A DNA stretch of 64,000 nt from a virus: the IMG/VR virus record IMGVR_UViG_3300047274_000223; one strand, written 5' to 3'. The position numbers were made by a program, and so were the translations under genes. The notes beneath the pieces are model-generated. The model was given only the letters and a program-made list of their open reading frames with translations. It ran no database searches and had not been told where the DNA came from. Shown in pieces: positions 17,901 through 63,947 of this stretch. Within the stretch, counting starts at the first letter, position 1, and each line of letters starts with the position of its first letter.

Positions 17901-19275
17901 ACTAACTAAAAAAATCTATAAACTAGAAGTTGTATTGAGTGATCCAGCTGTTGTAAGTTTTCCTTTGGGAAATCAACTTCAAGATTCGGCATTGTTAACA
18001 ACAATTGGCACTATTGTTGCATTTATTCCAAATGATCCTGAGGCGCCTACAACTGCAGAGATTTATGTCGGTAACTTAGAACAAGACTTCTTTACAAATG
18101 GATCTACAGTAAATTGTTATGAACCTGGAAATAACTTCCCAATTGGTATTGCAACTGTTACTTCTGCACAAGAAATAACATCTGAGGCTTATGGATTTAT
18201 TGAAAAAATTGATCAGGTTGGTGAAGGCTATAGAATTTATTTAAGTTCTGTAAAAGGTACTTTTAATCCATACGCACAACTGTTGGGAAGATTCGGTTAC
18301 AAGTCTCTGATTACAGATACAAAATCTATTATTGGAAGAGTGTCAAGAAGTTTTAGAGGATTTGATGGTGTACAAGATACTTTTGATCTAACTATCAATA
18401 ATGGAACCGCATATCTACCAAACCCAGATGGTCATATGTTGGTATTCTTGAATGGCGTTCTACAACCACCAACAACTTCGTATTCTGCGTTTAGTGATGT
18501 TATTCAGTTCACCGAACCACCAGAACTAGGAGCTTCTTTCCACGCCGTTTATATTGGCAAATTGAGACAACTAGATGATATTGGATTTGAATTTGATTCT
18601 CTGAGAAATAGTTTCAACTTGAAACTAGATGAAGTTTTCTACTCACTAACAGTTACTTCTGGTTCGGAAGCATCAAATATTAAACCAGAAAATAATATTA
18701 TTATTTCACTAAATGGTATCATTCAAGAACCTGGAGTTGCGTTTGAACTTGTTGGTTCTCGTGTAATTTTTGCTGAGATTCCAAGAGCAGGTTCTAGTTT
18801 TGTTGCATTCTCATATATTGGTTCTGACGCTGACGTTATTGCTTCTGAAGTTATCCCACCAATTGAAGCGGGAGATCAACTTTTACTTGAAGGTGAAGAT
18901 CAGGATAGAACAGTTGCTATTATTGAATCTTCAAACTCTCTAGTAACATTTGACTACACTGGATCTGTTTTTGGTAGAAATGCATCTGCTCTTGTATCCT
19001 TGATCAAGGGAAGAATTACTGAGTTGTCAGTAACCTCATCAGGTAACGGTTATACTTCGAGACCGTCCGTATCCATTGACTCCACAACTGGTTTTGATGG
19101 GCAAGTTAAGGCTCTAGTCGGTGTTTCTAGAGTTGATGTCGTTGATCGAGGAGGTGGATACAAGTATCCAGAGATTGAAATTGTTAATGATGTATCTGAT
19201 ACTCCCGCACTACTTATCTTCGACTCCACTGGTACATCTTTCGATACGGAAGATATTACGTTCGACCAGGCATAA
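2935..19275 (+). CDS. gp7: Giant baseplate wedge initiator, gp7-like (5446 aa), multidomain
   Basis: Sits between gp6 and gp8. Contains KDFYSSKGTRQAISYLFKVLYG and HPTGFKIFGE motifs, many GxGY...P glycine-rich repeats, a YHYH-like segment (HSPIIGWAFDGNPIYGPYG) and propeller-like, LamG-like and helical repeat segments. Confidence 0.85.
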   Translation: MHNEPQVSLSVLNQIPDFIREEHPLFEEFLRSYYSSLERGSGPVNILNNLPDYFNLSKYDLRKLNSTTNLIGNISPDSRNIEVESTDNFPDENGTILIDDEVIYYESVRKSPNVVLTPDISYSEFNKKLITLSNPYEQLDGIRDTFDLKANNEPVFPPSARHLIVRLYNEVLIPDVDYIVLGDKIKFTSVPREFDPVDLGDSFEDISIKYLKGFSESTITTIDNIGVINTAVDEERYDFNLRIDGVPFEPSSLSLMVVIVDNILLRPNLDYTVYGSSILLKNYPTQNSYIGVINAPLLSVGNGFVGYSVVNSQGQVERILVKNGGKNYSIDNTPKVSLVKGAGKNATARALISGVKEITLLEGGRGYSKENPPRVLVQSPDNPDGSVARAAVEVDEQGHVSEVHVTFSGSGYDFVPRVQFINPTGAAVGNVVVNQNGSIVSVDVLSGGIGYTVAPLIYIDDPIAPNGIKALLQGNLGSDGILQSVSVLTGGTGYDQYNPPRVAVIQPTGAQVLSVDVDSFGRVVNIELLSGGFGYEDVPSVYIVDDRVDNIGNPIGGTGATAVATVFNGEIIDINITNFGEGYSLEEPPKIFISSPVGAKASAQIGEQQITGFEVIESGINYVKSEFVGCSRGVSGIIGYDSDENAIFSGEDTSTPSLHLEGSLVKGLDSVFLTTILDRIVKQYIPGLPKLDYNTVNIANILRTVKDFYSSKGTRQAISYLFKVLYGVDIDISYPKDQIIKPSAASWSIDTILRARLISGNPENIRDTSIIQEEDAVDTNVKYAEATVENFIAIQTSDYDVYELVLSEESIVGSFTIPYKTKLAEPMTPETSIITVDSTIGWPERNGEIIVGTEIIRYKEKSLTQFIECTRGINETPGSWDSGTIISSNFYIRANPGTQNEVVMSVLGIVESNNTTLTDESSYYLPGDKLSISKLGSLDASPLVTSWLYNVKKLIEVESITYGGIGDRTATVTCSNPHGLLVGDQVTVYGANPIVYNGSFLVSARESALVFKYELPQPATLNPQGNILISVDLNKGKSDEESINSAITNFATNIQNTFFNSSDVYVAASGIPNYKIGPFLGTSLLPGNQRKLYRFPRLPQTISLKPETKYGSVGSFINGVSAWNYKSNDIFKYGPVTKVNIINPGSDYDADSPPVLSIRGGGGSGAVGSVIVDGSVTSIEVTNQGDGYTSSPLVSISGGKGSGASATAIITNGKVTRILVNTTGSGYTSAPTITVTGGGGFGCTAVASVRGPIKEVVVEDYGNDYTSAPSVSLSSGEGAAAQAYVSNGRILSIAVIASGNGYTTAPKVVIVGEGYGAVAIANIQTEGSEAGKVTSITILNRGIGYKQGTTQIRLESVGQGAVFNTEIFGWTFNLQETVNFDYANGSIFEGFNKQFGGEYGHVSNPKQLRYVLGDNLTVVQGQIVEKESGIVHSPIIGWAFDGNPIYGPYGLSDPTNLSSTIVPINSSYVLKSNLVFDAQINPTPVRIDGPSLDEYPAGTFIEDYIYQFRSEQFYLDEYNGRYCKTPEYPEGTYAYFITLNSDGSPAFPYIVGPNFYSIPDSWNLTQFAVQSNIPSGIVRYRAPFENVDIDVDRAPNESTNALTLENGDILTFEVEDENRDGVIDEFEEGDPDQIFEESKLQLFDYFPKIDFSSKVDIEIETTTKFEDAKISGFLIENAGENHQVGDRLIFDDTGTEGYGASAVVSEIVGKNITSYNYEYSASQDEYFGIVQTDSPHNMVIGDIVNVTTVPLMEPTTKSIYVRTIQGLEDVVVVTPGLGYDPEIDIQAVIDSDTGIGAVVEPIISSTGSLNDVRIINSGRNYLTDPKIRISHPQVQKRSIYFAISRYYEGSVKIFKSISDSSKNTYIVGSVKSSNNDTHAFISKINSEGTVLWSKSLTAIQPGSTKRAEFVDIVKNGSDLYVIGNTYPNTPSADNFNPDLLFAKYTENTSGTSVTLTWQKEAAGISGVLRKDYITGISALNNNIIICGHTTTNSTGAYDGILMYLSPGGDILHKRKLTSTTGTEKLLGIKVDSDDNIYVVGQTVENNLLVAKLRIVESKIISTWQKQVVYSGQEFHDIAFDIDEYDELFITASIGTTTRNKLGLVKLDGNANVIAQKEYSIPSIYSIIGAGCTIDVFSDLNVGYSAVDTNGKKTSGVIKLDYRGNVINSYTLGGVEGYNLVQVLSDVSGDPYFVGNIQPNRSQFLYNGNDYTDFIGRQGNLTTSGTVSINTDPKWGTNAFTVGQNGVLSTPTLSSSGNWTVDAWIKWDSAATAKVAQIFRIYDSSLTDGIKVQLFADNSSPSTLGKWRISNDGATVSTFSASTNNVTLLSSGYYYIAVNKSYNSSTGISTYTLYFNGTQQAQITLTNNINPTQIQVGSSTTYNSWPTKIDSFRLSNYAITATTIPTAAFSGYDYGTEVGYLMKFDKNADAERMGDITLTNNGIITTRTTSSISDNQLELLVETYALGPDGLQVLDMNDTTSYLTQDYHLPSSYADVWSSRTATIPSPGGRKAVFETSAYGKYFFRHFVIDKFDNVRVLEINQDFNFDIGTRINQKNSIGSTVGSARIVDIDTSNDLLYVTDVSGTFSTNSGYLESSDLKINEIEDYTFAYIDASSPGTFGISIPAEVEATFKTYSDEDYLIRIDEIITGASYARGSVVSLGPEYFSFSADRRSVTISGLASVTQITLIVNLTKTLQIDLISNTNRIFARSTTSHYLSVGENIYTETAPQYSYADGSFYIKEILSKKEFIFEIDSVPGSFIGSGTQLYVYVKHPVFKFIYGQQYTFDVTHVSNEGYYLSFYRDNLNKIEYTFKNIVRKGIPGRDAPGASPFISFKVTDDVSNISYYADPSRIGPKSPVSNFSYIDVVKSPYIGKFEIIETSGGTVTVGDNKFKFKIGIDPEKNAQSSLSSYSTQSSKVAGSIANIRLVNGGGFYKKLPVITDIQSVRKIERVEIRSPGTEYQPGEYFGVPILGDGAGGKVRIIVDENSDPAGQIIEVAVTDPGKGYTEAYIDVDAIDGILGPQLSGSGAVLDVIIPPKGTGSSIFVKGENVGKIKKLKNNNFGFNYTHDYTLRPEITFPVNLQLINTSILSNIKVTDPGTGYTSIPQVVITGGGGSGAEAIAEIRNGRISGIVIKNAGFGYSTAPVVELKTSFTYVVNLDLGLFQMAYPHGITNGSEVTFTVEDLGEGTAFPLTSFGYIIPGQIYYAIAGELAGLEDDQLRIALTPQDAESGNYISFANAGNGRQILLTNSFGGAAEAIVETGRFLSGEQIFQGESLETASAIGYVSNNDGWQIGPRILKLINTTGTFSVGQIVNGVISKASGTIDNINAAKGVIEVDSITKTPGKFLDDVGKPNEIVQKIQDSYLYQQFSYNVKSPISIDQWKTTVIDNTHPTGFKIFGEIQIEENQKGLTDKVDFELTKSVNLVESSVVAHIDNFGLVEPVYKEFDNTQVLFRTKKLTSSEEILTSYVQKIDDIAYLFDGERTSFPLTIDGNTVIANTNQLQLVINGVAQSPGTSFQVQQGSIVFNEAPPAPTKISYARLTLQFLQSFELQISNVSGILPELGQTIRGLISGVSATVIESTTSTITVFNKSGNFTPGELLLGSATGLSAQFDSEVLLVNDNVFEFKESITNTNKKTAEVEEINLNITNSVVTNEIVISKTSGTYNSPAGLLAIGINDFIVSAKTKVIAKVISVSPYIDPETGAPISSIAISDPSTFFGLLYNRIVSPDYPNVILDDISKSSVEIVDISDSDLKIEGRIPEFETINNITAEYTVNSGTGIVEEEFIQNIKINYINSTGDYANGEVVKVNKLAYKNLTGGNFQAGDIVSNGSGYTANVIGVSYALKYLFLGEQTGSFSIGDTLSCDRSFVSNDDIVAGRNADASDLILANKLLIADVAVGRMLAAYPGFTVPGGNQNCKDDIVDVLDEICFNLKYGGNHRAYDVGQLYIDNTYLQDERDESVYAFNQARDMAIQAMRNESITIGGYSSLSQYFDLTVEGDQSGEAGVYVPGDCADVAASLTTLFGIVTQAIGSDATPGNLTGITRTNIGTVFAEISAYLEIPFNVEQINPTTDTITTFQYFDDTQHRFRDAANLLRLNSTYIIEEAVGRMKNLYPDLIIPGDETGGSDGTSRCKLDLSLLLNATIDDLEYGGNYETLAAGRFYLDENGGIRFISRQILQSVYAHQQMSLLCQEAVQGTLSNTPEYTNEIPVLPLDITIDPSPVNGVYCADVVSKIDTLWSLINEVITTTGDVYKDASNALWFNRDFIADEAVGKTTNYFTYYLNGTEYKAFEYPGGNNGVTKCTRDIADYIIPSIIADLMSGGDSNIIDAMTYYIDVNDVLHVKDELLPTIYAFEQVNILCQYAIDNWVITGTSTVYSPQFGNVANMYFDESITEDDGTYGTNCARVKSAIDTLFTKAIAILLPERDQYILSGRHYDAANLIESNKLLIADVAVGRMLAAFPGFTVPNGNQNCKDDIVDILDTLCFNLRFGGNHKVYDAAQIYITNSGLLNGEQTESIYAFNQARDLAIEVMRNQTIAIGGYSSRTQVKDLTIVADPITGSNTSASSCANVASTITTLIAIVTQAVQNGNLTGITRTTDSTSNNLYRDAAKLILFNKEYFKEEIAGAVTAQYPGFNFGGANSTELPTYRTKCKRDIGYIVDAIVYDLLTNGNSAILFATQSYIDAATGTLISLQGELVQTLYAYTLLKTFMKSAIRENLTSPSPNVSFYAYSDNNIALTADHLTTIDTFLDDRMSILLGTLNNSNYIEANEIIEYNAITIPSRVYPSRIDITGISGRLSAGDYIYGQTSGIKGEIESIFTNRATIKKTLKRVRINFTLPLERFIENDTVTVQGSATNNGIVYSYSYSENFNYIDVDVNSGSFTPGDILINGEGYTATVVSVTDKVQISKLIGQFSNGDKIREFGSSTEFTISNYSNVSAPVLDNTGSKLTLETESYFGNFNVSNVIYSNTSDVYIDVKYNLGTQVGLGDLVLTKKIYKLEVVLSDPAVVSFPLGNQLQDSALLTTIGTIVAFIPNDPEAPTTAEIYVGNLEQDFFTNGSTVNCYEPGNNFPIGIATVTSAQEITSEAYGFIEKIDQVGEGYRIYLSSVKGTFNPYAQLLGRFGYKSLITDTKSIIGRVSRSFRGFDGVQDTFDLTINNGTAYLPNPDGHMLVFLNGVLQPPTTSYSAFSDVIQFTEPPELGASFHAVYIGKLRQLDDIGFEFDSLRNSFNLKLDEVFYSLTVTSGSEASNIKPENNIIISLNGIIQEPGVAFELVGSRVIFAEIPRAGSSFVAFSYIGSDADVIASEVIPPIEAGDQLLLEGEDQDRTVAIIESSNSLVTFDYTGSVFGRNASALVSLIKGRITELSVTSSGNGYTSRPSVSIDSTTGFDGQVKALVGVSRVDVVDRGGGYKYPEIEIVNDVSDTPALLIFDSTGTSFDTEDITFDQA
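14560..16719 (+). repeat. Internal duplication in gp7: about 0.5 kb copies at 14560-15066 and 16225-16719; more diverged helical copies near 15181, 15685 and 16740
   Basis: DASDLILANKLLIADVAVGRMLAAYPGFTVPGGNQNCKDDIVD vs DAANLIESNKLLIADVAVGRMLAAFPGFTVPNGNQNCKDDIVD; similarity is visible at nucleotide level. Confidence 0.9.
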
Positions 19276-45790: not shown

Positions 45791-48031
45791 ATGGCATTCA
45801 GTCAATTTTCCCCAGGTGTAGTTATCAGAGAAATTGATAACACAACTGTAAGTACCGTAGGAAATCCTACTTTTGCTGGTCTAGTTGGTCCTTTTTCAAA
45901 AGGCCCTGTAGAGGAAGTTAGAATCATCACCTCCGAGCAACAACTAGAACAAACCTTCGGCAGACCAAACGACAATAACTTTGAGTATTGGTTCGCTGCT
46001 GCACAATACCTCCTTTATGGTGGTGCAATTAAAGTTGTCAGATCCGACTCCGCAGGTCTAAAGAACTCAGTTTCAAACGGAACTGCAGTTAAGATCATCA
46101 ATAATGATCAATACGAAACAACCTATGAGAACGCTGCTGCTTCTTGGTTCTTCGCAGCGAAGACTCCTGGTGATTTCGCAAACGGAGTAAGAATCTATGT
46201 AACCGATGCAGGTCCAGACCAGATCCTTTATCTAGATGCACCTACCTCAGGTAACGATTGGCAGTTTGCTAACAGCGATGACATCTCCGCAGCAACTGGT
46301 GCTGCTGGTAAGGTATTTAGATACAGTCTCAAGTTAACCCTAGAATCAGGAGTTGTTGGTAACTTTGTTCCTGGAATTGCTGAAGTTAATGGAGATGGTT
46401 GCACCGTTCTAGCATGGGATCCAATCCATAGAGTTCTTGAGATCGAACTAGATTCGGACTACATTGGTATTGTAGAAGATGGTAATACTGTTGAGCAATC
46501 TTCTTCTGGCGCAGCGGCAACAGTTGCTGATGCTGGTGTTTCAAGAGAATTACTTGCTGTTCTAAACAGAGGTTCAATCGAATTTGCTGCTGGTAACGAT
46601 CTAACAGATTCAAACTCTGCTGCAGTAAACATTGGTCGTGCTGGTAGAGAGTATCTAACCAGAGAAGTATTCCCTGGATTCAAGTGGGCTTCTGTTGCTA
46701 CTCGTCCTGGAACTTCACCATACGTTGCAACCAAGAATGGATACAGAGATGAAATTCACGTTGTTGTTGTAGACACAACTGGATCAATCACTGGTACTCC
46801 AAACACAGTTCTTGAGAAGTTCGTTGGTCTTTCAAAGGCTTCTGATGCTAAAACAACTAACGGAGAAGCAAACTACTACAAAACCGCACTTAAGTTACGT
46901 TCTTCATACATTTATGTTGGTGCTCACAATAGCGCAGAAACATTTGCTGTAGGTGCTGTTGCATCCGATGGTGATTGGGGACAAGCATCTGCTAATACAA
47001 GTTTCAATCTTGTTCAGGGTGATGACGTAACCGATCCTGTTGGTGGTGCTGTGTATATCAACTCTGTTGCTGGTGCAACTGTTGCTTATTCACTAGGTAC
47101 TGCTTCTGGTACTGAAGGTGTTTCTGCATATTCACCAACTTCATCTGAATACATTGCAGCACTTTCTAAGTTTGAAGATCCTGAAGCAGAAGATCTAGAT
47201 TTCATCATTCCTGGTGGAATGGGATCAACTGAGATTGAAGGACTTGCAAGAGTAAATGCTATCGTTAACATTCTCAATCAGAGAAAAGATTGCATGGCAT
47301 TCTTCTCACCATTAAGAGATAGTGTTATCGGAGTTCCCGATACTAATGCAGTAACCACAAACCTAGTCAACTGGTTCTCGAAGCTACCTAGCACATCCTA
47401 TGCAGCATTCGATACTGGTTACAAGTATATCTACGATAGATATAACGATACTTTCCGTTATATTCCTTGCAACGGAGATATGGCTGGTCTATGCCTAGCA
47501 ACTCAGGTTAATGCAGATCCTTGGTTCTCACCTGCTGGTTTCCAGAGAGGTGTACTACAGAACGCAATCCGTCTAGCATATTCACCAAACAAGGGTCAGA
47601 GAGATCAACTCTATGTTGAGAGAATCAACCCAATCGTTTCATTCCCTGGCCAGGGAATCGTACTATTCGGTGATAAGACCGCTCTAGGATATCAGTCCGC
47701 ATTCGATAGAATCAATGTTCGTCGCCTCTTCCTAACCGTTGAGAAGACAGTTGCAAGAGTTGCTAAGAATGTACTCTTCCAGCAAAACGATGATACTTCG
47801 AGATCTGGATTCCTCAACGCTGTTGAGCCATACCTAAGAAACATTCAAGGAAGAAGAGGTCTTACCGATTTCCTTGTCAAGTGTGATCAATCAAACAACC
47901 CACCTGACGCGGTTGATAGAGGTGAATTCTATGCAGAGATCTATCTCAAGCCTACTAGAACGATTAACTACATTTCTATCTCCTTCATCGCAACAAGAAC
48001 TGGCGTTGCTTTTGAAGAAGTTGCTTCATAA
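45791..48031 (+). CDS. gp18: Tail sheath protein gp18
   Basis: SPGVVIREID, PWFSPAGFQRG, FDRINVRRLF, IYLKPTRTINYI motifs. Confidence 0.97.
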   Translation: MAFSQFSPGVVIREIDNTTVSTVGNPTFAGLVGPFSKGPVEEVRIITSEQQLEQTFGRPNDNNFEYWFAAAQYLLYGGAIKVVRSDSAGLKNSVSNGTAVKIINNDQYETTYENAAASWFFAAKTPGDFANGVRIYVTDAGPDQILYLDAPTSGNDWQFANSDDISAATGAAGKVFRYSLKLTLESGVVGNFVPGIAEVNGDGCTVLAWDPIHRVLEIELDSDYIGIVEDGNTVEQSSSGAAATVADAGVSRELLAVLNRGSIEFAAGNDLTDSNSAAVNIGRAGREYLTREVFPGFKWASVATRPGTSPYVATKNGYRDEIHVVVVDTTGSITGTPNTVLEKFVGLSKASDAKTTNGEANYYKTALKLRSSYIYVGAHNSAETFAVGAVASDGDWGQASANTSFNLVQGDDVTDPVGGAVYINSVAGATVAYSLGTASGTEGVSAYSPTSSEYIAALSKFEDPEAEDLDFIIPGGMGSTEIEGLARVNAIVNILNQRKDCMAFFSPLRDSVIGVPDTNAVTTNLVNWFSKLPSTSYAAFDTGYKYIYDRYNDTFRYIPCNGDMAGLCLATQVNADPWFSPAGFQRGVLQNAIRLAYSPNKGQRDQLYVERINPIVSFPGQGIVLFGDKTALGYQSAFDRINVRRLFLTVEKTVARVAKNVLFQQNDDTSRSGFLNAVEPYLRNIQGRRGLTDFLVKCDQSNNPPDAVDRGEFYAEIYLKPTRTINYISISFIATRTGVAFEEVAS

Positions 48032-52472: not shown

Positions 52473-53834
52473 ATGTTCATGTCAGAGCAATTGCAGGAAA
52501 AGTGGGCACCCATTCTTGAGCACAAAGATGCTGATCCTATCCAGGATACTTACAAGAAGGCTGTCACCTCAGTACTGCTAGAAAACCAAGAGAAGTTCCT
52601 CAGAGAAGAGCGTGGTATGCTCAATGAGGCTGCACCTACCAACTCCCTTGGTGGTACAGGTTTCTCGGGCGGTTCAACCGCAACTGGTCCAGTTGCAGGT
52701 TTCGATCCCGTTCTAATCAGCCTAATCCGCCGTTCGATGCCTAAGCTCATCGCTTATGACATCTGCGGTGTTCAACCCATGACTGGTCCTACTGGACTAA
52801 TCTTCGCAATGCGTTCGACCCAAGGCACCAACCGCGATATCGCTGGTGGCGCTACCGAAGCATTCTTCAACGAAGTTGATTCCGAGCATTCTTCCGAGAA
52901 CAGCGGAAACACCCTCGGATCAAACACCCAGACTGGTTCAAACCCTGGTCTTCTAAATGACAGCGGCACCTACACCATCGGTGGACAAGGTATGACCACT
53001 GCTCAGTCAGAAGCACTTGGCGATGGCGCTGGTAATCACTTCCGTGAGATGGGTTTCTCAATCGAGAAGGTCACCGTAACTGCAAAGTCACGCGCCCTCA
53101 AGGCTGAGTACTCGCTAGAACTCGCACAAGACCTCAAGGCTATCCATGGTCTTGATGCTGAGCAAGAACTAGCAAACATCCTCTCAACCGAGGTTCTTGC
53201 TGAAATCAACCGCGAAGTTGTACGTACCGTATACAAGATCGCTAAGCCTGGTGCTCAGAACAATACCGCTGCTGCTGGTATCTTTGACCTCGACGTTGAT
53301 TCAAACGGTCGTTGGTCTGTTGAGAAGTTCAAGGGTCTTCTATTCCAAATCGAGCGCGAAGCAAACGCAATCGGTCAGCAGACTCGTAGAGGAAAGGGTA
53401 ACTTCATCATCTGCTCTGCAGACGTTGCAAGTGCTCTCGGCATGGCTGGTGTTCTTGACTACACCCCCGCTATCAACGGCAACAATGGTCTTGCTGGTGT
53501 TGACGATACTTCCTCAACTCTAGTCGGAACCCTCAACGGTCGTATCAAGGTTTATGTTGATCCATATTCCGCTAACGTTTCCGATCGTCACTTCTTCGTT
53601 ATGGGTTATAAGGGTTCTTCACCTTACGATGCAGGTCTCTTCTATTGCCCATACGTTCCTCTCCAAATGGTTCGTGCAGTTGGTCAGGACACCTTCCAGC
53701 CTAAGATCGGATTCAAGACTCGTTACGGTATGGTTGCTAACCCATTCGCTGAGGGTCTAACCCAAGGTCAGGGTGCTCTAACCGCTAACGCTAACGTATA
53801 CTACAGACGTGTTCTTGTAGACAACCTAATGTGA
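52473..53834 (+). CDS. gp23: Major capsid protein gp23
   Basis: ICGVQPMTGPTGLIFAMR, KSRALKAEYSLELAQDLKAIHGLDAEQEL, FQPKIGFKTRYG motifs. Confidence 0.99.
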   Translation: MFMSEQLQEKWAPILEHKDADPIQDTYKKAVTSVLLENQEKFLREERGMLNEAAPTNSLGGTGFSGGSTATGPVAGFDPVLISLIRRSMPKLIAYDICGVQPMTGPTGLIFAMRSTQGTNRDIAGGATEAFFNEVDSEHSSENSGNTLGSNTQTGSNPGLLNDSGTYTIGGQGMTTAQSEALGDGAGNHFREMGFSIEKVTVTAKSRALKAEYSLELAQDLKAIHGLDAEQELANILSTEVLAEINREVVRTVYKIAKPGAQNNTAAAGIFDLDVDSNGRWSVEKFKGLLFQIEREANAIGQQTRRGKGNFIICSADVASALGMAGVLDYTPAINGNNGLAGVDDTSSTLVGTLNGRIKVYVDPYSANVSDRHFFVMGYKGSSPYDAGLFYCPYVPLQMVRAVGQDTFQPKIGFKTRYGMVANPFAEGLTQGQGALTANANVYYRRVLVDNLM

Positions 53835-56892: not shown

Positions 56893-56921
56893 ATTCTACA
56901 CAGATTTTAGATAGTTGTCAA
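56893..56921 (-). promoter_or_regulatory. Candidate divergent (antisense) sigma70 promoter TTGACA-17-TAGAAT
   Basis: The minus strand reads TTGACA actatctaaaatctgtg TAGAAT. Confidence 0.6.
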
Positions 56922-56952
56922 GTACTTCATGGCTTGACAACTATTCTTTTTT
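56911..56952 (+). terminator. 12-bp perfect hairpin plus T tract; probable terminator of uvsY-uvsW-orf, overlapping the gp55 -35 box
   Basis: atagttgtcaag-tacttcatgg-cttgacaactat followed by tctttttt. Confidence 0.7.
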
Positions 56953-56962
56953 AGGATATACT
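56934..56962 (+). promoter_or_regulatory. sigma70-type promoter for gp55 (TTGACA-17-TATACT)
   Basis: Consensus -35, 17-bp spacer, near-consensus -10. Confidence 0.88.
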
Positions 56963-57453: not shown

Positions 57454-58485
57454 ATGAAAGTTCTCGTTATTACTGATCAACACTTCGGTGTTCGTAACGA
57501 TTCGTTAGTATATGTAGATTACTATAGAAAATTCTATAGTAATGTGGTTATCCCATTTATCAAGAAGTATAATATCAAACATGTTCTCTGTCTTGGAGAT
57601 ACGTTTGACCGCCGTAAATCCGTAAACTTCAATTCACTTGAAGCCGCTAAAGATATGTGGTTTGATACCTTGGAAACCATGGGAGTGCAAATGACCATGT
57701 TAGTAGGTAACCATGATATTTACTATAAAAACACTCTACGAGTTAATGCCCCATCTCTCCTCTTGGGAGAGTATGGCAACATTCAGATTATGGATGGCCC
57801 TGGTGAATTCCTTCTTGGTTCTTTGCCTGTACTTGGCATCCCTTGGATATGTGATGACAATCGATCCAGAACTTACGAACTTCTGGAACAATCTACTGCA
57901 CCTCTCTGTGTGGGCCATCTTGAGTTTAACGGTTTTGAGACTGTGCCTGGAATTGTAATGGAGCATGGAATTGACCAGCAACCATTTAAGAAATTTGATA
58001 AAGTACTTTCTGGACACTTTCATACCAAATCCAGTAAAGGTAATATTTTTTACCTTGGTAATCCGTATGAACTATATTGGAACGATTATCAGTCTCCACG
58101 GGGATTTCATATTCTAGATACTGATACTTTAGATCTGAAGTTCTATCGTAATCCTTATACTATGTTTGAGAAATATTACTATAAGGATGGTGATGAACTT
58201 CCTGAGACAGACAAGTTCTCTGGTAAGTATGTTAAACTGATCGTAGAAGATAAGCAAGATCATGTAAAGTTTGACAGATTGGTTAAATTGCTCTATGATG
58301 CCAATGTTGCAGATCTAAAAATTATTGAAGATCTTTCCATTGAGTTTGAGGGTATTGATGATGATGTGGAAACTGAAGACACTATGACGCTTCTTGAGAA
58401 ATATATAGATGAAGTGGAATGTTCTAATCGAGATTCGATTAAAGGCATTATGAAGTCCCTTTATTTGGAAGCTTGTGAGTATTAA
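57454..58485 (+). CDS. gp47: Recombination nuclease gp47 (Mre11/SbcD-like)
   Basis: ITDQHFG, LGDTFD, VGNHD, GHLE, SGHFH metallophosphoesterase motifs. Confidence 0.96.
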   Translation: MKVLVITDQHFGVRNDSLVYVDYYRKFYSNVVIPFIKKYNIKHVLCLGDTFDRRKSVNFNSLEAAKDMWFDTLETMGVQMTMLVGNHDIYYKNTLRVNAPSLLLGEYGNIQIMDGPGEFLLGSLPVLGIPWICDDNRSRTYELLEQSTAPLCVGHLEFNGFETVPGIVMEHGIDQQPFKKFDKVLSGHFHTKSSKGNIFYLGNPYELYWNDYQSPRGFHILDTDTLDLKFYRNPYTMFEKYYYKDGDELPETDKFSGKYVKLIVEDKQDHVKFDRLVKLLYDANVADLKIIEDLSIEFEGIDDDVETEDTMTLLEKYIDEVECSNRDSIKGIMKSLYLEACEY

Positions 58486-58736
58486 TGTATATACTAGTAT
58501 CTAAAAAGCATGGAGGAGTCTATGCTGTAAAAAATAAGGATGGCCTTAGAACAGTTCAAATATTTGAATCTGAAGATGATGCCGTTCGTTACCATGGACT
58601 CTTGCTTGCTGACAATTTTGATGATACACTAGAGATTGCAGAGTGCGAACCAGAACAAGTCGCACAGAGTTGTGCTATCTATGGTTACAACTATTGTTTT
58701 ATTGAAACTGATGACATTGTATTTCCACCTACATGA
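58485..58736 (+). CDS. Hypothetical protein (83 aa), resembling the DUF3110-like genes found between gp47 and gp46
   Basis: TAATG and ATGA overlaps with neighbours; VQIFESEDDAVRYHGLL motif. The family call is from memory and unverified. Confidence 0.7.
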   Translation: MYILVSKKHGGVYAVKNKDGLRTVQIFESEDDAVRYHGLLLADNFDDTLEIAECEPEQVAQSCAIYGYNYCFIETDDIVFPPT

Positions 58737-60451
58737 TTACTTTTAATACTATTCGTTGGAAAAATTTCCTCTCTACGGGAAACCAATTCACTGAACTTGA
58801 ATTAGATAAGAGTCAATCCACGTTGATTCAGGGATCTAATGGTGCTGGTAAATCAACACTATTGGATGCTTTGTGTTTTGGATTGTTCAACAAGCCATTT
58901 CGTAAGATCAACAAACCCCAACTTGTAAATTCTATCAACGAGAAGGATTGTGTAGTTGAAATTGAGTTTACGATTGGAAATATTGTTTGGCGAGTTCACA
59001 GAGGAATCAAACCTAACAAGTTTGAAGTGTATCGTAATGATGTCCTAGTAGATCAGGTTGCTGCGAATGCAGATCAACAGAAATGGTTGGAGCAGAATGT
59101 TCTGAAAATGAACTTCAAGAGTTTCACTCAGGTTGTTATTCTTGGATCATCCACCTTTGTTCCATTCATGCAACTGACTCCCGCATATCGTCGAGAAGTG
59201 ATCGAAGATATTCTTGATATTCAGATCTTCTCTACGATGAATGTTCTTCTTAAGGATAGGCTTCGTCAGACAATTGAAAGGCAAAGAGAGTGTGGATATG
59301 ATCTTAAGTCTGCAGAAGATAAAGTTAAGATGCAAGAAGAGTACATTCGCAATTCGCAAACAGCGAACGGTGATGTAATTTTAACCAAACAGCAAGAGAT
59401 TGCTAAGATTGAAGAAGAGATCTTTGATCTACAAAAGCAGATCAATATGCTGGAAGCGGAGAATCTTGATATTGATGCTCACACTTCCGAATTTGATACG
59501 ATCTCCAAGCAGATTCGTAAACTAAACGAACTGCATTTCAAAATCTCTCACAATAAAACAGATGCTGAAAAAAATTTAGACTTCTTTCACGATAATGATA
59601 CATGTCCAACGTGTACTCAAACTATCGAAAAAGAGTTCAAAGATCGGAAAATTTCCGATCTTCGTAGTAAAACTCTTCAATATATTGATGGTCTTTCTAA
59701 GATGAAAGACCAACTCGAAGATCTTGATAAGCAATATACTGCTCTTCAAGAACGTAGAGATATTAAGAAGTCAAATGCATCAAAGATTTTTCATCTTTCT
59801 AATATTATCAGCAGAAATGAAAATTCAATTAAATCTCTAAAAAATGAGATCAACCGTCTTTCTGATTCTCCTGATATTGCTAAAATGCAAGGTAAGTTAG
59901 AAGTCTATCGGGAAGAGTATTCTCAGATTGAACAACAATGTGCGGAGGTTTCTAAACAAAAAACTGAGTATGAAGTGATTGGTAATCTACTTAAAGATGG
60001 TGGTATCAAAGCCCAGATCATTAAGAAGTATATCCCTGTGATCAACAACCGTATCAACAGGCACTTGACAAACATGGATTTCTATGTTAACTTCACTCTA
60101 GATGAAGAGTTTGATGAGGTCATTAAGTCTCGCTACCGTGATGAGTTTTCATACGCATCGTTTTCGGAGGGGGAAAAACAAAAGATCGATTTAGCTCTTC
60201 TCTTCACTTGGAGGGAGATTGCTAGAATGAAGAGTAGTGTTTCCACTAACCTTTTGATTCTAGATGAAGTGTTCGACAGTTCCTTGGATGCATCGGGAAC
60301 TGAGGAATTACTTAAAATTCTTAAGAGCCTAGATAGTTCTACGAATACGTTCGTAATCTCTCACAAAGGTGAGATCCTTATCGATAAGTTTGTGAATAAC
60401 ATTCGATTCGATAAGGTATCAGACTTCAGCAAAATCGTTGAGGAAGTCTAG
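58733..60451 (+). CDS. gp46: Recombination ATPase gp46 (Rad50/SbcC-like)
   Basis: Walker A GSNGAGKS, zinc hook CPTC, signature SFSEGEK, Walker B LILDE, H-loop ISH. Confidence 0.97.
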   Translation: MITFNTIRWKNFLSTGNQFTELELDKSQSTLIQGSNGAGKSTLLDALCFGLFNKPFRKINKPQLVNSINEKDCVVEIEFTIGNIVWRVHRGIKPNKFEVYRNDVLVDQVAANADQQKWLEQNVLKMNFKSFTQVVILGSSTFVPFMQLTPAYRREVIEDILDIQIFSTMNVLLKDRLRQTIERQRECGYDLKSAEDKVKMQEEYIRNSQTANGDVILTKQQEIAKIEEEIFDLQKQINMLEAENLDIDAHTSEFDTISKQIRKLNELHFKISHNKTDAEKNLDFFHDNDTCPTCTQTIEKEFKDRKISDLRSKTLQYIDGLSKMKDQLEDLDKQYTALQERRDIKKSNASKIFHLSNIISRNENSIKSLKNEINRLSDSPDIAKMQGKLEVYREEYSQIEQQCAEVSKQKTEYEVIGNLLKDGGIKAQIIKKYIPVINNRINRHLTNMDFYVNFTLDEEFDEVIKSRYRDEFSYASFSEGEKQKIDLALLFTWREIARMKSSVSTNLLILDEVFDSSLDASGTEELLKILKSLDSSTNTFVISHKGEILIDKFVNNIRFDKVSDFSKIVEEV

Positions 60452-60473: not shown

Positions 60474-60504
60474 ATCCTTGAGGTATATTACGCTTACTCC
60501 ATCT

Positions 60505-60577
60505 GGGGAATTAGCTCAGTTGGTAGAGCACCTGCTTTGCAAGCAGGCTGTCAGGAGTTCGAGTCTCCTATTCTCCA
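60505..60577 (+). tRNA. trnA: tRNA-Ala (anticodon UGC), CCA not encoded
   Basis: GGGGAAT/ATTCTCC acceptor stem with G3:U70, GCTC/GAGC D stem, CCTGC-TT-TGC-AA-GCAGG anticodon arm, TTCGAGT T loop, discriminator A73 followed by TTC. Confidence 0.97.
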
Positions 60578-60606
60578 TTCATAAGCAACACTTATCGGTC
60601 AACCCC

Positions 60607-60635
60607 TTGACCCTTGGTTCGTTGTGCTCTATATT
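60607..60635 (+). promoter_or_regulatory. sigma70-type promoter (TTGACC-17-TATATT)
   Basis: Correct spacing; upstream of a GAGG RBS and the ATG at 60659. Confidence 0.85.
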
Positions 60636-60658: not shown

Positions 60659-62785
60659 ATGCCCGTCAACCCTGAAGTTAAAGGAACCCTTGCCAAACTG
60701 CTTGCCACTGAGAATCTGAACGTGGAGCATCGTCAGGTTCCTACTGCGTATTTTGAAGTCGATAACCGTACCCTTTGCCTGCCGATCTGGAAGAACGTCT
60801 CTGGCACCGTCTATGACCTCCTGGTAGGTCATGAAGTCGGTCATGCACTCTATACCCCTGTGGACTACGGTGCGGTCTCTCAGGCAATCCCACAGGACAT
60901 TCTGAACGTGCTGGAGGATGTTCGTGTAGAGAAACTCATGAAACGTCGTTATCCTGGTCTCTCCAAGTCGTTCTATCACGGCTATAACGAGATGAACGAT
61001 ATGGATTTCTTTGAGATTAAGGAGAAAGATCTTGGTAAGATGTCCTTGATCGACCGTATCAACATCCATTACAAGGTTGGTGTTGTTGGCAATCGCACCA
61101 TCGTTCCTTTTGAACGTGATGAGATTGAGTGGGTCAATCGTGCTGCTGAGACTGAAACCTGGGATGATCTTGTGGATCTTGCTTTTGCTCTGATGGATTA
61201 TCTGAAGCAGAAGAAAGTTGAGGAGAAAGAAGTTCCTGCTCCTCAGACTTCTGGTGGTGGTGATGAACCTCAACCTCCCCAAATGCCTGGTAGTTCCAAT
61301 ATGGAAACTCAAGGTAATTCTACTCAAGGTTCTGACTTTGAGAATGAGGATGAAGAGTCTACTCCAGATGGGGGTAATTCCACCCCGATTGGGGGTAAGA
61401 ATGAGGTGAACGAGAATGTCTCGGAAACTCAACGTGCTATGGATGAAAATCAGCAGCAACTTGTTGATGAACGTGCAAAGGAATATTTGTACATCAATCT
61501 TCCTAAGTTTGATCTGAGTCAAACGATTGTTCCTTTCAAAACTAACGTTGAGAAGATGAGCAATTCTTTTAATGCTTGGCATCAACGTTCTGATCTGGAA
61601 CGTCCTGTGGAAGAGTATCGTAAGTACAAGAAAGATAGCATCAAGACTGTGAACTATCTTGTGAAAGAGTTTGAGTGTAAGAAAGCTGCAGATCAGTATG
61701 CTCGTGCATCAACTTCTCGCACTGGTGTTCTTGATACTACCCGTCTTCACACTTACAAGTTCAGTGATGATGTATTCAAGAAAGTGACCACCATTCCTGA
61801 TGGTAAGAATCACGGTCTTGTGTTCTATCTGGACTGGTCTGGTTCTATGTCCAGCAGCATGATCTCTACGATCAAGCAATTGTATGATTTGATGTGGTTC
61901 TGTAAGAAGTGTGCTATTCCTTTCCGAGTGTATGCTTTCTCGGATTGTCATGTTAATGATCAACTGTTTCCTGGCAAACCGACTCCTAATAATGAAGGTG
62001 ATTTGAATATCGATCGATCATTCCGTCTGTTTGAGTTCTTCTCTTCTAAGATGAACACTCAAACCTTTGATAAGATGATGGAAGTATTCTTTGTTAATTG
62101 CTGGGGGTTCTATCGTGGTAATTGGTATGATTATGAATATTCTCTCTCTGGCACCCCTCTGGTAGAAGCAATCGTTTCCACCCCTCAGGTTGTCGAGAAA
62201 TTCAAAAGTGAAGAGAAAGTTCAGAAAGTTAACGTGATTTATCTTACTGATGGAGAGGCTTGTACTCCTTGCTATAACAAATACATTCCTGCTTTGAAGG
62301 AAGTTCATTCACAACCCATTTATGGTGATAAAATTACTGTTCTCCGTGATCCTAAGAGTCGGTTTCAAACTCAAATCAATACGGATCGTCATGGAATCAC
62401 TAACACCTTTGTTGGTTATATTTCCAACATCGTGAACTACAATCTGCTTGGTTTCCGTCTTTGCTCCAAGAGTGAAGTTCGTATTCAAGCAAATTACTGT
62501 GAGATGCCTTTTGATGAAGTTGCTAAACTGGATAAAGAGTGGACTAAGAATAAGTCTGTGACCATTAAAGGTTGTGGTTTTAAGGAACTGTATTTGATTC
62601 ATGGTACTGATGATTCTTACAATCGTTATCGTTACTGGAATCCAGATGGAAAGAAAGATTCTAATGAAATTGAAGTGAAAGATGTATCTTCCAAGTCCCA
62701 ACTTACCACTGCATTTAAGAAACATATGAATGGTAAGATGGTCAATAAGGTAATCTTATCAAAGTTCGTGGGTCAAATCGCTTGA
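60659..62785 (+). CDS. Zincin-like metallopeptidase fused to a vWA domain (CobT-like partner of a MoxR ATPase)
   Basis: HEVGH (HExxH) followed by NVLEDVRVE; acidic low-complexity linker; MIDAS motif LDWSGSM, SGTPL and YLTDGE. Confidence 0.88.
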   Translation: MPVNPEVKGTLAKLLATENLNVEHRQVPTAYFEVDNRTLCLPIWKNVSGTVYDLLVGHEVGHALYTPVDYGAVSQAIPQDILNVLEDVRVEKLMKRRYPGLSKSFYHGYNEMNDMDFFEIKEKDLGKMSLIDRINIHYKVGVVGNRTIVPFERDEIEWVNRAAETETWDDLVDLAFALMDYLKQKKVEEKEVPAPQTSGGGDEPQPPQMPGSSNMETQGNSTQGSDFENEDEESTPDGGNSTPIGGKNEVNENVSETQRAMDENQQQLVDERAKEYLYINLPKFDLSQTIVPFKTNVEKMSNSFNAWHQRSDLERPVEEYRKYKKDSIKTVNYLVKEFECKKAADQYARASTSRTGVLDTTRLHTYKFSDDVFKKVTTIPDGKNHGLVFYLDWSGSMSSSMISTIKQLYDLMWFCKKCAIPFRVYAFSDCHVNDQLFPGKPTPNNEGDLNIDRSFRLFEFFSSKMNTQTFDKMMEVFFVNCWGFYRGNWYDYEYSLSGTPLVEAIVSTPQVVEKFKSEEKVQKVNVIYLTDGEACTPCYNKYIPALKEVHSQPIYGDKITVLRDPKSRFQTQINTDRHGITNTFVGYISNIVNYNLLGFRLCSKSEVRIQANYCEMPFDEVAKLDKEWTKNKSVTIKGCGFKELYLIHGTDDSYNRYRYWNPDGKKDSNEIEVKDVSSKSQLTTAFKKHMNGKMVNKVILSKFVGQIA

Positions 62786-62810
62786 CCCCTGCTCCCAGAT
62801 GCCCTATACT
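62782..62810 (+). promoter_or_regulatory. sigma70-type promoter (TTGACC-17-TATACT)
   Basis: Correct spacing; the -35 overlaps the stop codon of the upstream gene. Confidence 0.85.
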
Positions 62811-62851
62811 ACTAAGGTAATCGACGGGAGCACCCCCTCAACCCCATCATC

Positions 62852-63913
62852 ATGACGAAACAAGTGGAACTGACTAACCTGACTCAACGATTTGGTAAAA
62901 CTGTAAATGCTGCTCAACTTCGTGAGTATGCTAATGAGACTGGTGTGAGCTACCAAACTCTTACTAAGAAACTGCTCAACTATAAAACTGGACGTGGAGT
63001 GTGGACCTTGGAAGTGGAGAAACTGGAAGAATCTTTTGCTGCTCCTGCAGTTGATCCCGATCGGGAACTTCAGTCCTATGTTCCTGCTAAGGATGGCAAT
63101 TTTGTCCCGTTCGGTAACTTTGCAGATCTGAAGAAAGTTATTCAGTCGAAAGAGTTCTATCCTGTTTTCATCACTGGTCTGTCTGGTAACGGTAAGACTC
63201 ATTCTGTTGAACAGGCATGTGCTCAACTGAAACGTGAACTGATTCGTGTCAACATCACGATCGAGACTGACGAGGATGATCTGATCGGTGGTTTCCGTCT
63301 TGTGGATGGTTCTACCGTGTGGCACAACGGTCCTGTGGTGGAAGCACTTGAACGGGGTGCGGTGCTGCTGCTTGACGAGATCGATCTTGCTTCTAACAAA
63401 ATTCTCTGTCTGCAGTCTGTTCTGGAAGGTAATGGTGTGTTCCTGAAGAAGATTGGTCGTTATGTCCGTCCTGCTGCTGGTTTCACTGTGGTTGCTACTG
63501 CTAACACGAAGGGAAAAGGATCTGATGATGGACGATTCATTGGAACTAACGTCCTTAATGAAGCCTTCCTTGAACGATTCCCAATCACGTTTGAGCAAGA
63601 ATATCCCACTGAAAAGACTGAGATCAAGATTCTTTCTAACATCATGGGTGGTTCGGACGATGATTTTGCCGAGAAACTTGTTCGCTGGGCACAAGTAATC
63701 CGCAAGACCTTCTATGATGGTGGTGTTGATGAAGTGATCAGCACCCGTCGTTTGGTGCATATTGCCAAGGCATTTTCTATCTTCGGCAAACGTGATAAGG
63801 CAATCGAAGTGTGTGTCAACCGTTTCGATGCTGATACCAAGCAATCTTTCTTGGAACTCTATTCCAAGGTAGATGACAAGGTTGAAACTATTGACGAGCA
63901 AGCACCTTTCTGA
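62852..63913 (+). CDS. cobS: MoxR-family AAA+ ATPase, phage cobS-like
   Basis: Walker A GLSGNGKT, DEDDLIGGF, Walker B LLLDEID, ATANTKG, NEAFLERF, ISTRRL motifs. Confidence 0.93.
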   Translation: MTKQVELTNLTQRFGKTVNAAQLREYANETGVSYQTLTKKLLNYKTGRGVWTLEVEKLEESFAAPAVDPDRELQSYVPAKDGNFVPFGNFADLKKVIQSKEFYPVFITGLSGNGKTHSVEQACAQLKRELIRVNITIETDEDDLIGGFRLVDGSTVWHNGPVVEALERGAVLLLDEIDLASNKILCLQSVLEGNGVFLKKIGRYVRPAAGFTVVATANTKGKGSDDGRFIGTNVLNEAFLERFPITFEQEYPTEKTEIKILSNIMGGSDDDFAEKLVRWAQVIRKTFYDGGVDEVISTRRLVHIAKAFSIFGKRDKAIEVCVNRFDADTKQSFLELYSKVDDKVETIDEQAPF

Positions 63914-63922
63914 TATACTAAC

Positions 63923-63947
63923 GGGGAGGTTATCCCTCCCCTTCTTT
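63923..63947 (+). terminator. Probable intrinsic terminator after cobS
   Basis: ggggagg-ttatc-cctcccc followed by ttcttt. Confidence 0.75.

Follow-up and report, generated by a model that had tools for sequence, protein, structure and literature searches.

The vWA/cobS module and its surroundings

The analysed stretch, further called the window, covers 64,000 nucleotides (nt) of the IMG/VR virus record IMGVR_UViG_3300047274_000223 and is a part of a T4-like cyanomyovirus genome. Virion genes come first, including those for the giant baseplate protein gp7, gp18, gp20 and gp23; they are followed by gp55, gp47, gp46, a tRNA-Ala(UGC) gene, a gene for a 708-residue protein with HExxH and vWA parts (the vWA gene) and cobS (Table 1). 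The last two genes, referred to here as the module, avoid a whole set of A-ending codons that are used freely in most of the window, and it is this avoidance, together with its probable relation to phage tRNAs and early expression, that is considered below.

Among public phages, Synechococcus phage S-CREM1 is the closest, with 72.7% DNA identity to the window over the module stretch and the same gene order, the tRNA-Ala gene included. Six reference phages were compared (S-CREM1, S-PM2, Syn9, S-SSM5, P-SSM2 and P-HM2), and the gp47-gp46-vWA-cobS order is identical in all six genomes.

Table 1. Features of the window discussed in the text (positions are those of the 64,000-nt window)
Feature	Position	Strand	Comment
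gp7, giant baseplate protein	2935..19275
gp18	45791..48031
gp23	52473..53834
Putative TTGACA-N17 promoters, back-to-back	56893..56962		on opposite strands; 12-bp inverted repeat; before gp55
gp47	57454..58485
gp46	58733..60451
tRNA-Ala(UGC)	60504..60578	+	found by ARAGORN; follows gp46 and precedes the module; annotated at the same place in S-CREM1
Perfect palindrome ATAAGCAACACTTAT	60581..60595	+	11 nt upstream of the -35 box of the vWA gene
Putative sigma-70-type promoter of the vWA gene, TTGACC-N17-TATATT	60607..60635	+	ends 23 nt before ATG
In-register antisense open reading frame, 318 residues	60629..61585	-	opposite codons 1-309 of the vWA gene; by-product
vWA gene (HExxH/vWA protein), 708 residues	60659..62785	+	PHROG 459 'peptidase'; orthologue of P-HM2 PHM2_135
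Perfect palindrome ATAAGGTAATCTTAT	62745..62759	+	within the vWA gene at its 3' end; 22 nt before the -35 box of cobS; identical in S-CREM1
Putative sigma-70-type promoter of cobS, TTGACC-N17-TATACT	62782..62810	+	ends 41 nt before ATG; -35 box overlaps the vWA stop codon
In-register antisense open reading frame, 391 residues	62804..63979	-	opposite cobS; by-product, not a gene
cobS, predicted MoxR-type AAA+ ATPase	62852..63913	+	AAA_5 and CbbQ_C
Putative sigma-70-type promoter of the gene after cobS, TTGACG-N17-TATACT	63891..63919	+
Intrinsic-terminator-like hairpin after cobS	63923..63941	+
Gene after cobS	start 63964		cut by the window end; S-CREM1 counterpart codes for an SLH-domain protein; same codon class

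The cobS product, matching the Pfam families AAA_5 (PF07728, 7.8e-18) and CbbQ_C (PF08406, 2e-8), is predicted to be a MoxR-type AAA+ ATPase. Its neighbour has no Pfam match even at E<=10, and sequence and profile searches of PDB with this protein returned nothing useful, its domains being identified by invariant motifs and the predicted fold. An alignment of 35 orthologues has revealed an invariant N-terminal HExxH (H58, E59, H62) and a complete metal ion-dependent adhesion site (MIDAS) motif (D392-x-S394-x-S396, T499, D531), which is also invariant in the 35 sequences; residues 193-248, about 55 in number, form a disordered linker between the HExxH and vWA halves. When the AlphaFold model of the protein (mean pLDDT 74) was compared to PDB structures by Foldseek, the vWA domain of NorD (9qhe_G, NorQ-NorD complex) was the best match, followed by the MIDAS domain of MDN1 and integrin I domains, with E of about 3e-4 and low TM-scores obtained with the full-length model as the query. 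The 'peptidase-vWA' label, attached to this gene in an earlier reading of the same DNA made from its letters only (further the sequence-only reading), is supported by these motifs and by the predicted vWA fold.

Judging by sequence and the structural model, the pair resembles the NorQ-NorD, CbbQ-CbbO and CobS-CobT remodelling systems, where a MoxR/CbbQ-type AAA+ ATPase likewise adjoins a protein with a MIDAS-bearing vWA domain. Unlike the partners in those systems, the phage protein has an extra invariant N-terminal HExxH domain, which is metallopeptidase-like.

Codon usage of the module

The sequence-only reading stated that all 28 Arg codons of the vWA gene and all 18 of cobS are CGN and that gp7 uses mostly AGA. 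Codon counts agree with this: neither AGA nor AGG occurs in the vWA gene (28 CGN, including 23 CGT) or in cobS (18 CGN), compared with 140 AGA, 11 AGG and 10 CGN in gp7. TTA, CTA and TCA are found 1, 0 and 4 times in the vWA gene and are completely missing from cobS, while CTA, described as freely used in gp18 and gp23, was counted there 22 and 12 times, respectively. Taken together, AGR codons (AGA or AGG) constitute 0 of the 46 Arg codons of the module vs 76% in the remaining genes of the window (Fisher p=4e-27). Even at the AGR share of 38% characteristic of four pooled replication and portal genes, gp46 and gp47 among them, the probability of 0/46 is only about 3e-10.

The avoidance is broader than it was described in the sequence-only reading, as A-ending codons other than AGR, TTA, CTA and TCA are depleted as well. 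There is no ACA among 68 Thr codons and no ATA among 53 Ile codons; CCA (4/42), GTA (10/89), GGA (10/67) and TCA (4/63) are rare, and GCA is the least avoided A-ending codon (16/52). A occupies a 0.14-0.17 share of third positions in the module vs 0.30-0.38 in most structural genes, with third-position T unchanged.

For comparisons between genes, we used the A-index, defined as the share of A-ending codons among the codons for Leu, Ile, Val, Ser (TCN), Pro, Thr, Ala, Arg and Gly. It equals 0.078 in the vWA gene, which is the minimum for the window, 0.089 in cobS, 0.20-0.22 in gp46 and gp47, and 0.37 in the median gene of the window. Discrete classes of synonymous usage are thus present within one genome: the module at 0.08-0.09, the gp46/gp47 pair, and late genes with a median of 0.37. 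The step in codon usage, located near 60.6 kb, coincides exactly with the boundary formed by the tRNA-Ala gene and the promoter.

Antisense frames in register with the module genes, reported by the sequence-only reading to be open across cobS and the first 309 codons of the vWA gene, are indeed present (Table 1). They are open because the module has few or no TTA, CTA and TCA, i.e., the reverse complements of stop codons. Conversely, a coding gene opposite cobS, 391 codons long and in register, could forbid these three codons on the sense strand, and the length of the open frames would be in line with such a gene. However, among the 80 IMG/VR homologues of cobS the antisense frame is stop-free in only 11, the median being three stops, and in L068, L069 and S-CREM1, which are the closest relatives, it is interrupted. 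An antisense gene would also leave the avoidance of AGA, ACA, CCA, GTA, GGA and ATA unexplained. Since the open frame is not conserved, a real antisense gene was rejected as scarcely credible; TTA, CTA and TCA are just three of about ten avoided A-ending codons, and their relation to stop codons is incidental.

Base composition and tRNA choice

The G+C share at third codon positions (GC3) is 0.41 in the module vs 0.18-0.30 in many structural genes. This would fit the alternative put forward in the sequence-only reading, according to which the module was recently acquired from a higher-GC donor, so that its codon usage is a relic which has not yet drifted to the phage composition. The distribution of the change over codon families speaks against such an origin, as there is no shift at all degenerate positions. 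In the four-fold boxes, the A share is 0.10 in the module vs 0.40 elsewhere (odds ratio 0.17, p=2e-42), while the T share goes up from 0.43 to 0.54. In the two-fold boxes, the balance between T and C is unchanged and the A share of Lys, Glu and Gln codons is not much lower in the module (0.51 vs 0.63). Both codons of each of these three amino acids are read by one U34 tRNA. The depletion is therefore confined to positions offering another isoacceptor, and the rise of T-ending codons, combined with nearly unchanged Lys, Glu and Gln codons, means that it is tRNA choice that is selected, not a higher GC content. A higher-GC donor would lower the share of T-ending codons too, so their rise contradicts a shift towards donor composition.

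The codons favoured by the module are CGT, CCT, ACT/ACC, GGT, TCT, GCT, ATC, CTG/CTT and GTT/GTG, all of which can be read by G34, I34 or C34 isoacceptors according to standard wobble rules. As a host proxy, we took a Cyanobium metagenome-assembled genome (MAG) with 66% GC (G001), reached via the psbA gene of S-CREM1. Each of the avoided codons accounts for 1-10% of its family in this MAG. T-ending codons are rare there as well, therefore the module does not copy host codon frequencies; it retains the AT-richness of the phage where the major host tRNAs can wobble.

In the MAG, 41-42 tRNA genes can be detected. Four tRNAs carried by cyanophages, Thr(UGU), Val(UAC), Ser(UGA) and Gly(UCC), were not found among them, and Ile(GAU) is missing too, indicating that the bin is probably incomplete; no weight is therefore given to these absences.

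Conservation of the avoidance in relatives

Homologues of the module genes avoid the same codons in related phages, a check that had been proposed along with the sequence-only reading. Of the cobS homologues found in 80 IMG/VR contigs, 71 have at most two AGR codons. The A-index of cobS (median 0.10) is lower than that of flanking genes (median 0.28) in 68 of the 68 contigs with enough flanking sequence (p=8e-13), and the vWA gene is below its flanks in 45 of 47. The five exceptional contigs have low GC (0.34-0.35) and, from GC alone, can be read as Prochlorococcus-phage-like.

At conserved residues, 40-55% of synonymous codons differ between the window and S-CREM1, L068, L069, L070 or S-PM2, which is the same turnover as in gp46, gp47 and gp20. 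Despite it, A-ending codons make up 6-10% in the window and 6-16% in the relatives. Such a turnover at a persistently low A share points to avoidance maintained as an equilibrium rather than left over as a frozen relic.

This is difficult to reconcile with a recent transfer, and so are several other observations. cobS is a core gene of cyanophages (PMC3037559), and its gene order is constant in the reference genomes. Best hits, compared without a tree, give identical nearest relatives (L069, L068, L070 and S-CREM1) for cobS, the vWA gene, gp46 and gp47, and at this level neither phylogenetic incongruence nor patchiness was seen. Cyanophage MoxR ATPases were placed by the authors of the S-CREM1 description in a subfamily other than that of the cyanobacterial ones (PMC9964418), and orthologues from Prochlorococcus phages use AGA and TTA freely. 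Apart from GC3, a foreign origin could be suspected from the S-CREM1 hypervariable region, where depleted genes occur one by one between neighbours with an ordinary A-index (0.35-0.47), giving the region a mosaic-like look. Considering the core status of cobS, the fixed synteny, the shared best-hit relatives and the rise of T-ending codons, we find a recent import from a higher-GC donor very improbable.

Codon avoidance and phage tRNA complements

The number of tRNA genes varies widely in the reference phages: 25 in S-CREM1, 26 in S-PM2, six in Syn9, four in S-SSM5, one in P-SSM2 and none in P-HM2. Both large sets include Arg(UCU), Leu(UAA), Leu(UAG), Ser(UGA), Thr(UGU), Val(UAC), Pro(UGG), Gly(UCC), Ile of the lysidine type and Ala(UGC). 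The codons avoided by the module (AGA, TTA, CTA, TCA, ACA, CCA, GTA, GGA and ATA) are precisely those of this U34/lysidine (k2C) tRNA set of S-CREM1 and S-PM2. tRNA-Ala(UGC) being the only tRNA gene within the window, the correspondence between codons and tRNAs is established in the relatives. The sequence-only reading named Arg(UCU), Leu(UAA) and Ser(UGA) as common cyanophage tRNAs; this holds for the first two, present in four of the six reference phages, but Ser(UGA) is found in two only.

When genes are ranked by A-index, cobS and the vWA gene take places 2 and 5 of 132 in S-CREM1 and 5 and 8 of 133 in S-PM2, with no AGR codons in either phage. The ranks are 9 and 17 of 128 in Syn9, 8 and 14 of 135 in S-SSM5, 17 and 72 of 139 in P-HM2, and 9 and 76 of 209 in P-SSM2. 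In the last two phages, which have no or one tRNA gene, the vWA gene is ordinary, cobS is mildly low and AGA is freely used in both genes. The avoidance in Syn9 and S-SSM5 is centred on TTA, AGA and ACA, i.e., on codons for which these phages have their own tRNAs, and CTA, GGA and GCA are not avoided. Across the relatives, the codon contrast therefore becomes stronger as phages have more tRNA genes. Much the same codons were brought up by work on a tRNA-Leu(UAA)-deficient host, in which the untranslated Syn9 proteins were enriched in UUA, AGA and ACA (PMC11726456).

The modules of Prochlorococcus phages still avoid ATA, which accounts for 4 of 65 codons vs 35% in P-HM2 (125126-128505) and 8 of 69 vs 34% in P-SSM2 (129430-133895), despite free use of AGA and TTA in the same modules.

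Expression timing

In the RNA-seq clusters of P-HM2, the peptidase gene PHM2_135 and cobS (PHM2_136) belong to Early(A) in the light and are the only early genes located outside the PHM2_056-074 block of small genes (PMC5082946 S2 Table). In P-SSM2, cobS served as a representative early gene (PMC6628666), and for S-PM2 no temporal expression classes are given in Puxty 2018. We mapped the P-HM2 classes onto the other phages by reciprocal best hits, so the timing in the phage considered here is predicted by orthology.

With classes assigned in this way, the median A-index of early, middle and late orthologues is 0.08, 0.27 and 0.37 in the window, 0.07, 0.24 and 0.39 in S-CREM1 (middle vs late p=7e-5), and 0.12, 0.30 and 0.39 in S-PM2 (p=8e-4). 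The same order in Syn9 (0.17, 0.25 and 0.29) is not significant, and no gradient over expression classes is seen in P-SSM2. The avoidance thus tracks the expression class in the window, S-CREM1 and S-PM2, as would be expected from the sequence-only reading. In P-HM2 itself, early genes as a class have an A-index of 0.37 vs 0.46 in middle and late genes (p=0.0015).

Genes as depleted as the module are not limited to it. In S-CREM1, extreme depletion (A-index 0.045-0.13, 0-1 AGR) is found in genes for the SLH-domain and DUF3310 proteins beside cobS, a DEAD/SNF2-type helicase, an SPFH protein, an RNA ligase, a DUF6267 protein, gp32 and MazG; the S-CREM1 positions listed for these genes are 159277-160155, 160213-160521, 83426-84685, 80872-81690, 73004-74086, 79042-79953, 24787-25794 and 171841-172299 (loci L003-L011).

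Promoters and associated palindromes

Each of the two module genes is preceded by its own putative sigma-70-type promoter, and a third one is located in front of the next gene (Table 1). All three have counterparts in S-CREM1 at about equal distances: TTGACC-17-TATAGT lies 22 nt before the ATG of the vWA gene, and TTGACC-17-TATAAT precedes cobS at the same distance as in the window. The -10 box of the third promoter ends directly before the hairpin that follows cobS, and its transcripts would start inside or just before this hairpin.

Two perfect ATAAG-N5-CTTAT palindromes, the only ones in the 64 kb of the window, are both situated upstream of the module promoters. Their distances to the -35 boxes are one helical turn apart. 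Four further sites, of the form ATAAG-N5-CT(A/G)AT, occur in S-CREM1 at 10-11 nt from a following TTGAC box, and one of these sites precedes the codon-depleted helicase gene; the positions listed for palindrome sites in the S-CREM1 record are 158030, 83375, 76423, 65726 and 85652. No pairs of an ATAAG-N5 site and a promoter were found in Syn9, S-PM2, S-SSM5, P-SSM2 or P-HM2. The palindrome can be considered a candidate regulator site or UP-type element of host-type promoters in this lineage.

As a proxy for expression class, the promoter motif distinguishes early from late genes significantly in S-CREM1 only (p=0.0013) and is noisy elsewhere.

A probable early gene pair adapted to the host tRNA pool

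The avoidance is probably best explained by the vWA gene and cobS being an early pair with codons selected for the major isoacceptors of the host, while the bulk of the genome uses codons of phage tRNAs. Host RNA polymerase with sigma-70 would transcribe both genes early from their own promoters, and their synonymous codons would be under selection for messages readable by the major host isoacceptors alone. G34 tRNAs would read NNU and NNC, the inosine tRNA-Arg would read CGU, and C34 tRNAs would serve CUG and GUG; codons requiring U34 isoacceptors or, in the case of AUA, the lysidine tRNA would be avoided. Phages of this lineage may supply the scarce U34 tRNAs from their own tRNA genes, and the remaining genome, late virion genes above all, would be free to use A-ending codons once the phage tRNAs have accumulated. 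The avoided codons are rare in the high-GC picocyanobacterial host proxy, therefore the matching tRNAs are presumably scarce, and U34 tRNAs may well be limiting in the host of this phage. The matching phage tRNA genes are expected to lie outside the window and their products to accumulate only after the module has been translated.

This is also what the sequence-only reading proposed in its main part, i.e., a temporal codon programme in which the early genes are fitted to the tRNAs of the naive host. Support comes from the codon pattern itself, its restriction to positions with a choice of tRNAs, its maintenance in relatives, its match to the tRNA sets of relatives and scaling with their size, the promoters, the ascending early-middle-late order of A-index and the early class of the orthologues (PMC5082946, PMC6628666).

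A number of observations do not sit easily with the early-pair explanation or reduce its weight. The window includes no member of the phage tRNA set other than tRNA-Ala, and the MAG used in place of the host is probably incomplete. Expression classes were carried over by orthology from a Prochlorococcus phage; the 'early' label rests on two conserved genes, giving n=2 per genome in the early vs middle test. Several middle genes (gp32, the DEAD/SNF2-type helicase, RNA ligase, MazG and the SPFH protein) are as depleted as the module, and S-CREM1 genes located behind sigma-70-type promoters span A-index values of 0.02-0.49, so not all early-promoter genes are depleted. Among wider homologues, a canonical -35/-10 promoter precedes the vWA gene in just 4 of 54, without enrichment.

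Some of these facts could be accounted for by expression level instead of timing, if the depleted genes were the most heavily translated non-structural genes, tuned to the major host tRNAs. Abundant replication proteins are depleted in S-CREM1 (A-index of 0.127 for gp32, 0.153 for gp45 and 0.111 for gp62), and gp23 ranks 5th by A-index in Syn9 and 2nd in S-SSM5; in the window, too, gp23 avoids AGA and TTA. On the other hand, no data suggest exceptionally high expression of cobS or the vWA gene, and the early-middle-late order of the A-index tracks timing. Moreover, gp23, a heavily expressed late gene coding for the most abundant protein, has 24 TTA, CTA and TCA codons in the window, 33 in S-CREM1 and 18 in S-PM2, compared with 0-5 in the module genes and 0-2 in gp23 of Syn9 and S-SSM5. 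Leu(UAG) and Ser(UGA) tRNAs are carried by S-CREM1 and S-PM2 and are lacking in Syn9 and S-SSM5. It appears that gp23 exploits phage tRNAs and the module does not; therefore, what sets the classes apart is timing together with the supply of phage tRNAs, and not just expression level. Expression level as the main cause is thus not likely, but the two explanations are compatible with each other.

Another explanation, which we regard as unlikely, sees the avoidance as a hedge against tRNA-based resistance of the host. The first-expressed module would be free of codons whose tRNAs can be cut by anticodon nucleases or withheld by the host, an example of the latter being Synechococcus WH5701, where tRNA-Leu(UAA) expression is lost. 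Proteins for take-over or counter-defence could then still be produced. An RNA ligase gene (Pfam RNA_ligase) belongs to the same depleted class in S-CREM1 (A-index 0.084), and this family includes tRNA-repair enzymes. However, Lys, Glu and Gln codons are not avoided, and the U34 tRNAs of these amino acids are the classic targets of anticodon nucleases. Without tRNA-Leu(UAA), translation of UUA-, AGA- and ACA-rich Syn9 proteins was shown to be blocked (PMC11726456), but the evidence so far is explained equally well by ordinary tRNA scarcity.

Relation to known codon programmes

Temporal codon-usage classes with phage tRNAs serving late genes were reportedly described for phage T4 by Cowe and Sharp in 1991 and by Kunisawa in 1992. 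The cyanophage module is similar in that a distinct synonymous usage tracks expression time and the non-early codons match phage-encoded tRNAs, the latter in relatives. It differs from the T4-type classes in a contrast that is nearly all-or-none (0/46 AGR, 0/68 ACA), is limited to A-ending codons of families with several isoacceptors and scales with the number of tRNA genes. It also belongs to an AT-rich phage, the nearest relative of which infects a Synechococcus strain, with a host proxy of 66% GC. Differences in codon bias between early and late genes were found in 7 of 14 phages studied by Mioduser, Goz and Tuller (2017, PMC5683454).

The tRNAs of cyanomyoviruses were interpreted as compensation for the codon mismatch between a low-GC phage and a high-GC host (Limor-Waisberg, 2011, PMC3152331; S-CREM1 paper, PMC9964418), and loss of host tRNA-Leu(UAA) was described as phage resistance (Zborowsky et al., 2025, PMC11726456). 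Our results involve the same tRNAs and codons (UUA, AGA, ACA, GUA and others) and the same logic of host scarcity. Those studies compared whole genomes (PMC3152331, PMC9964418) or whole expression clusters (PMC11726456), and none of them singles out the early pair. In the accessible literature, we found no description of near-total codon exclusion in the cobS/peptidase pair of cyanomyoviruses or of its scaling with the tRNA complement.

The module is thus a very clean new example of the early vs late codon split known in phages, and not a recent import. Within one AT-rich genome, the early pair would need only the major host tRNAs, and the remaining genes appear to lean on predicted phage tRNAs; this joins three published threads, the first on phage tRNAs that compensate for codon mismatch, the second on temporal classes of codon usage and the third on resistance through loss of host tRNAs. 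We predict that this phage carries tRNAs for Leu(UAG), Leu(UAA), Ser(UGA), Thr(UGU), Pro(UGG) and Arg(UCU) outside the window.

More speculatively, and with considerable doubt, cyanomyoviruses with many tRNAs may maintain a defined set of genes that do not depend on phage tRNAs and are translatable when the host U34 tRNAs are scarce, withheld (as in WH5701) or damaged. In S-CREM1, it would comprise the MoxR-vWA pair, the SLH protein, the DEAD/SNF2-type helicase, RNA ligase, the SPFH protein, MazG and gp32. If such a set exists, the depletion index would mark first-line take-over and counter-defence proteins, and some of its genes would share the ATAAG-N5-CTNAT promoter element in this lineage.

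The A-index may serve as a simple predictor of cyanophage proteins that are still made in tRNA-restricted hosts, and it marks cobS and its HExxH-vWA partner as candidate immediate-early functions.

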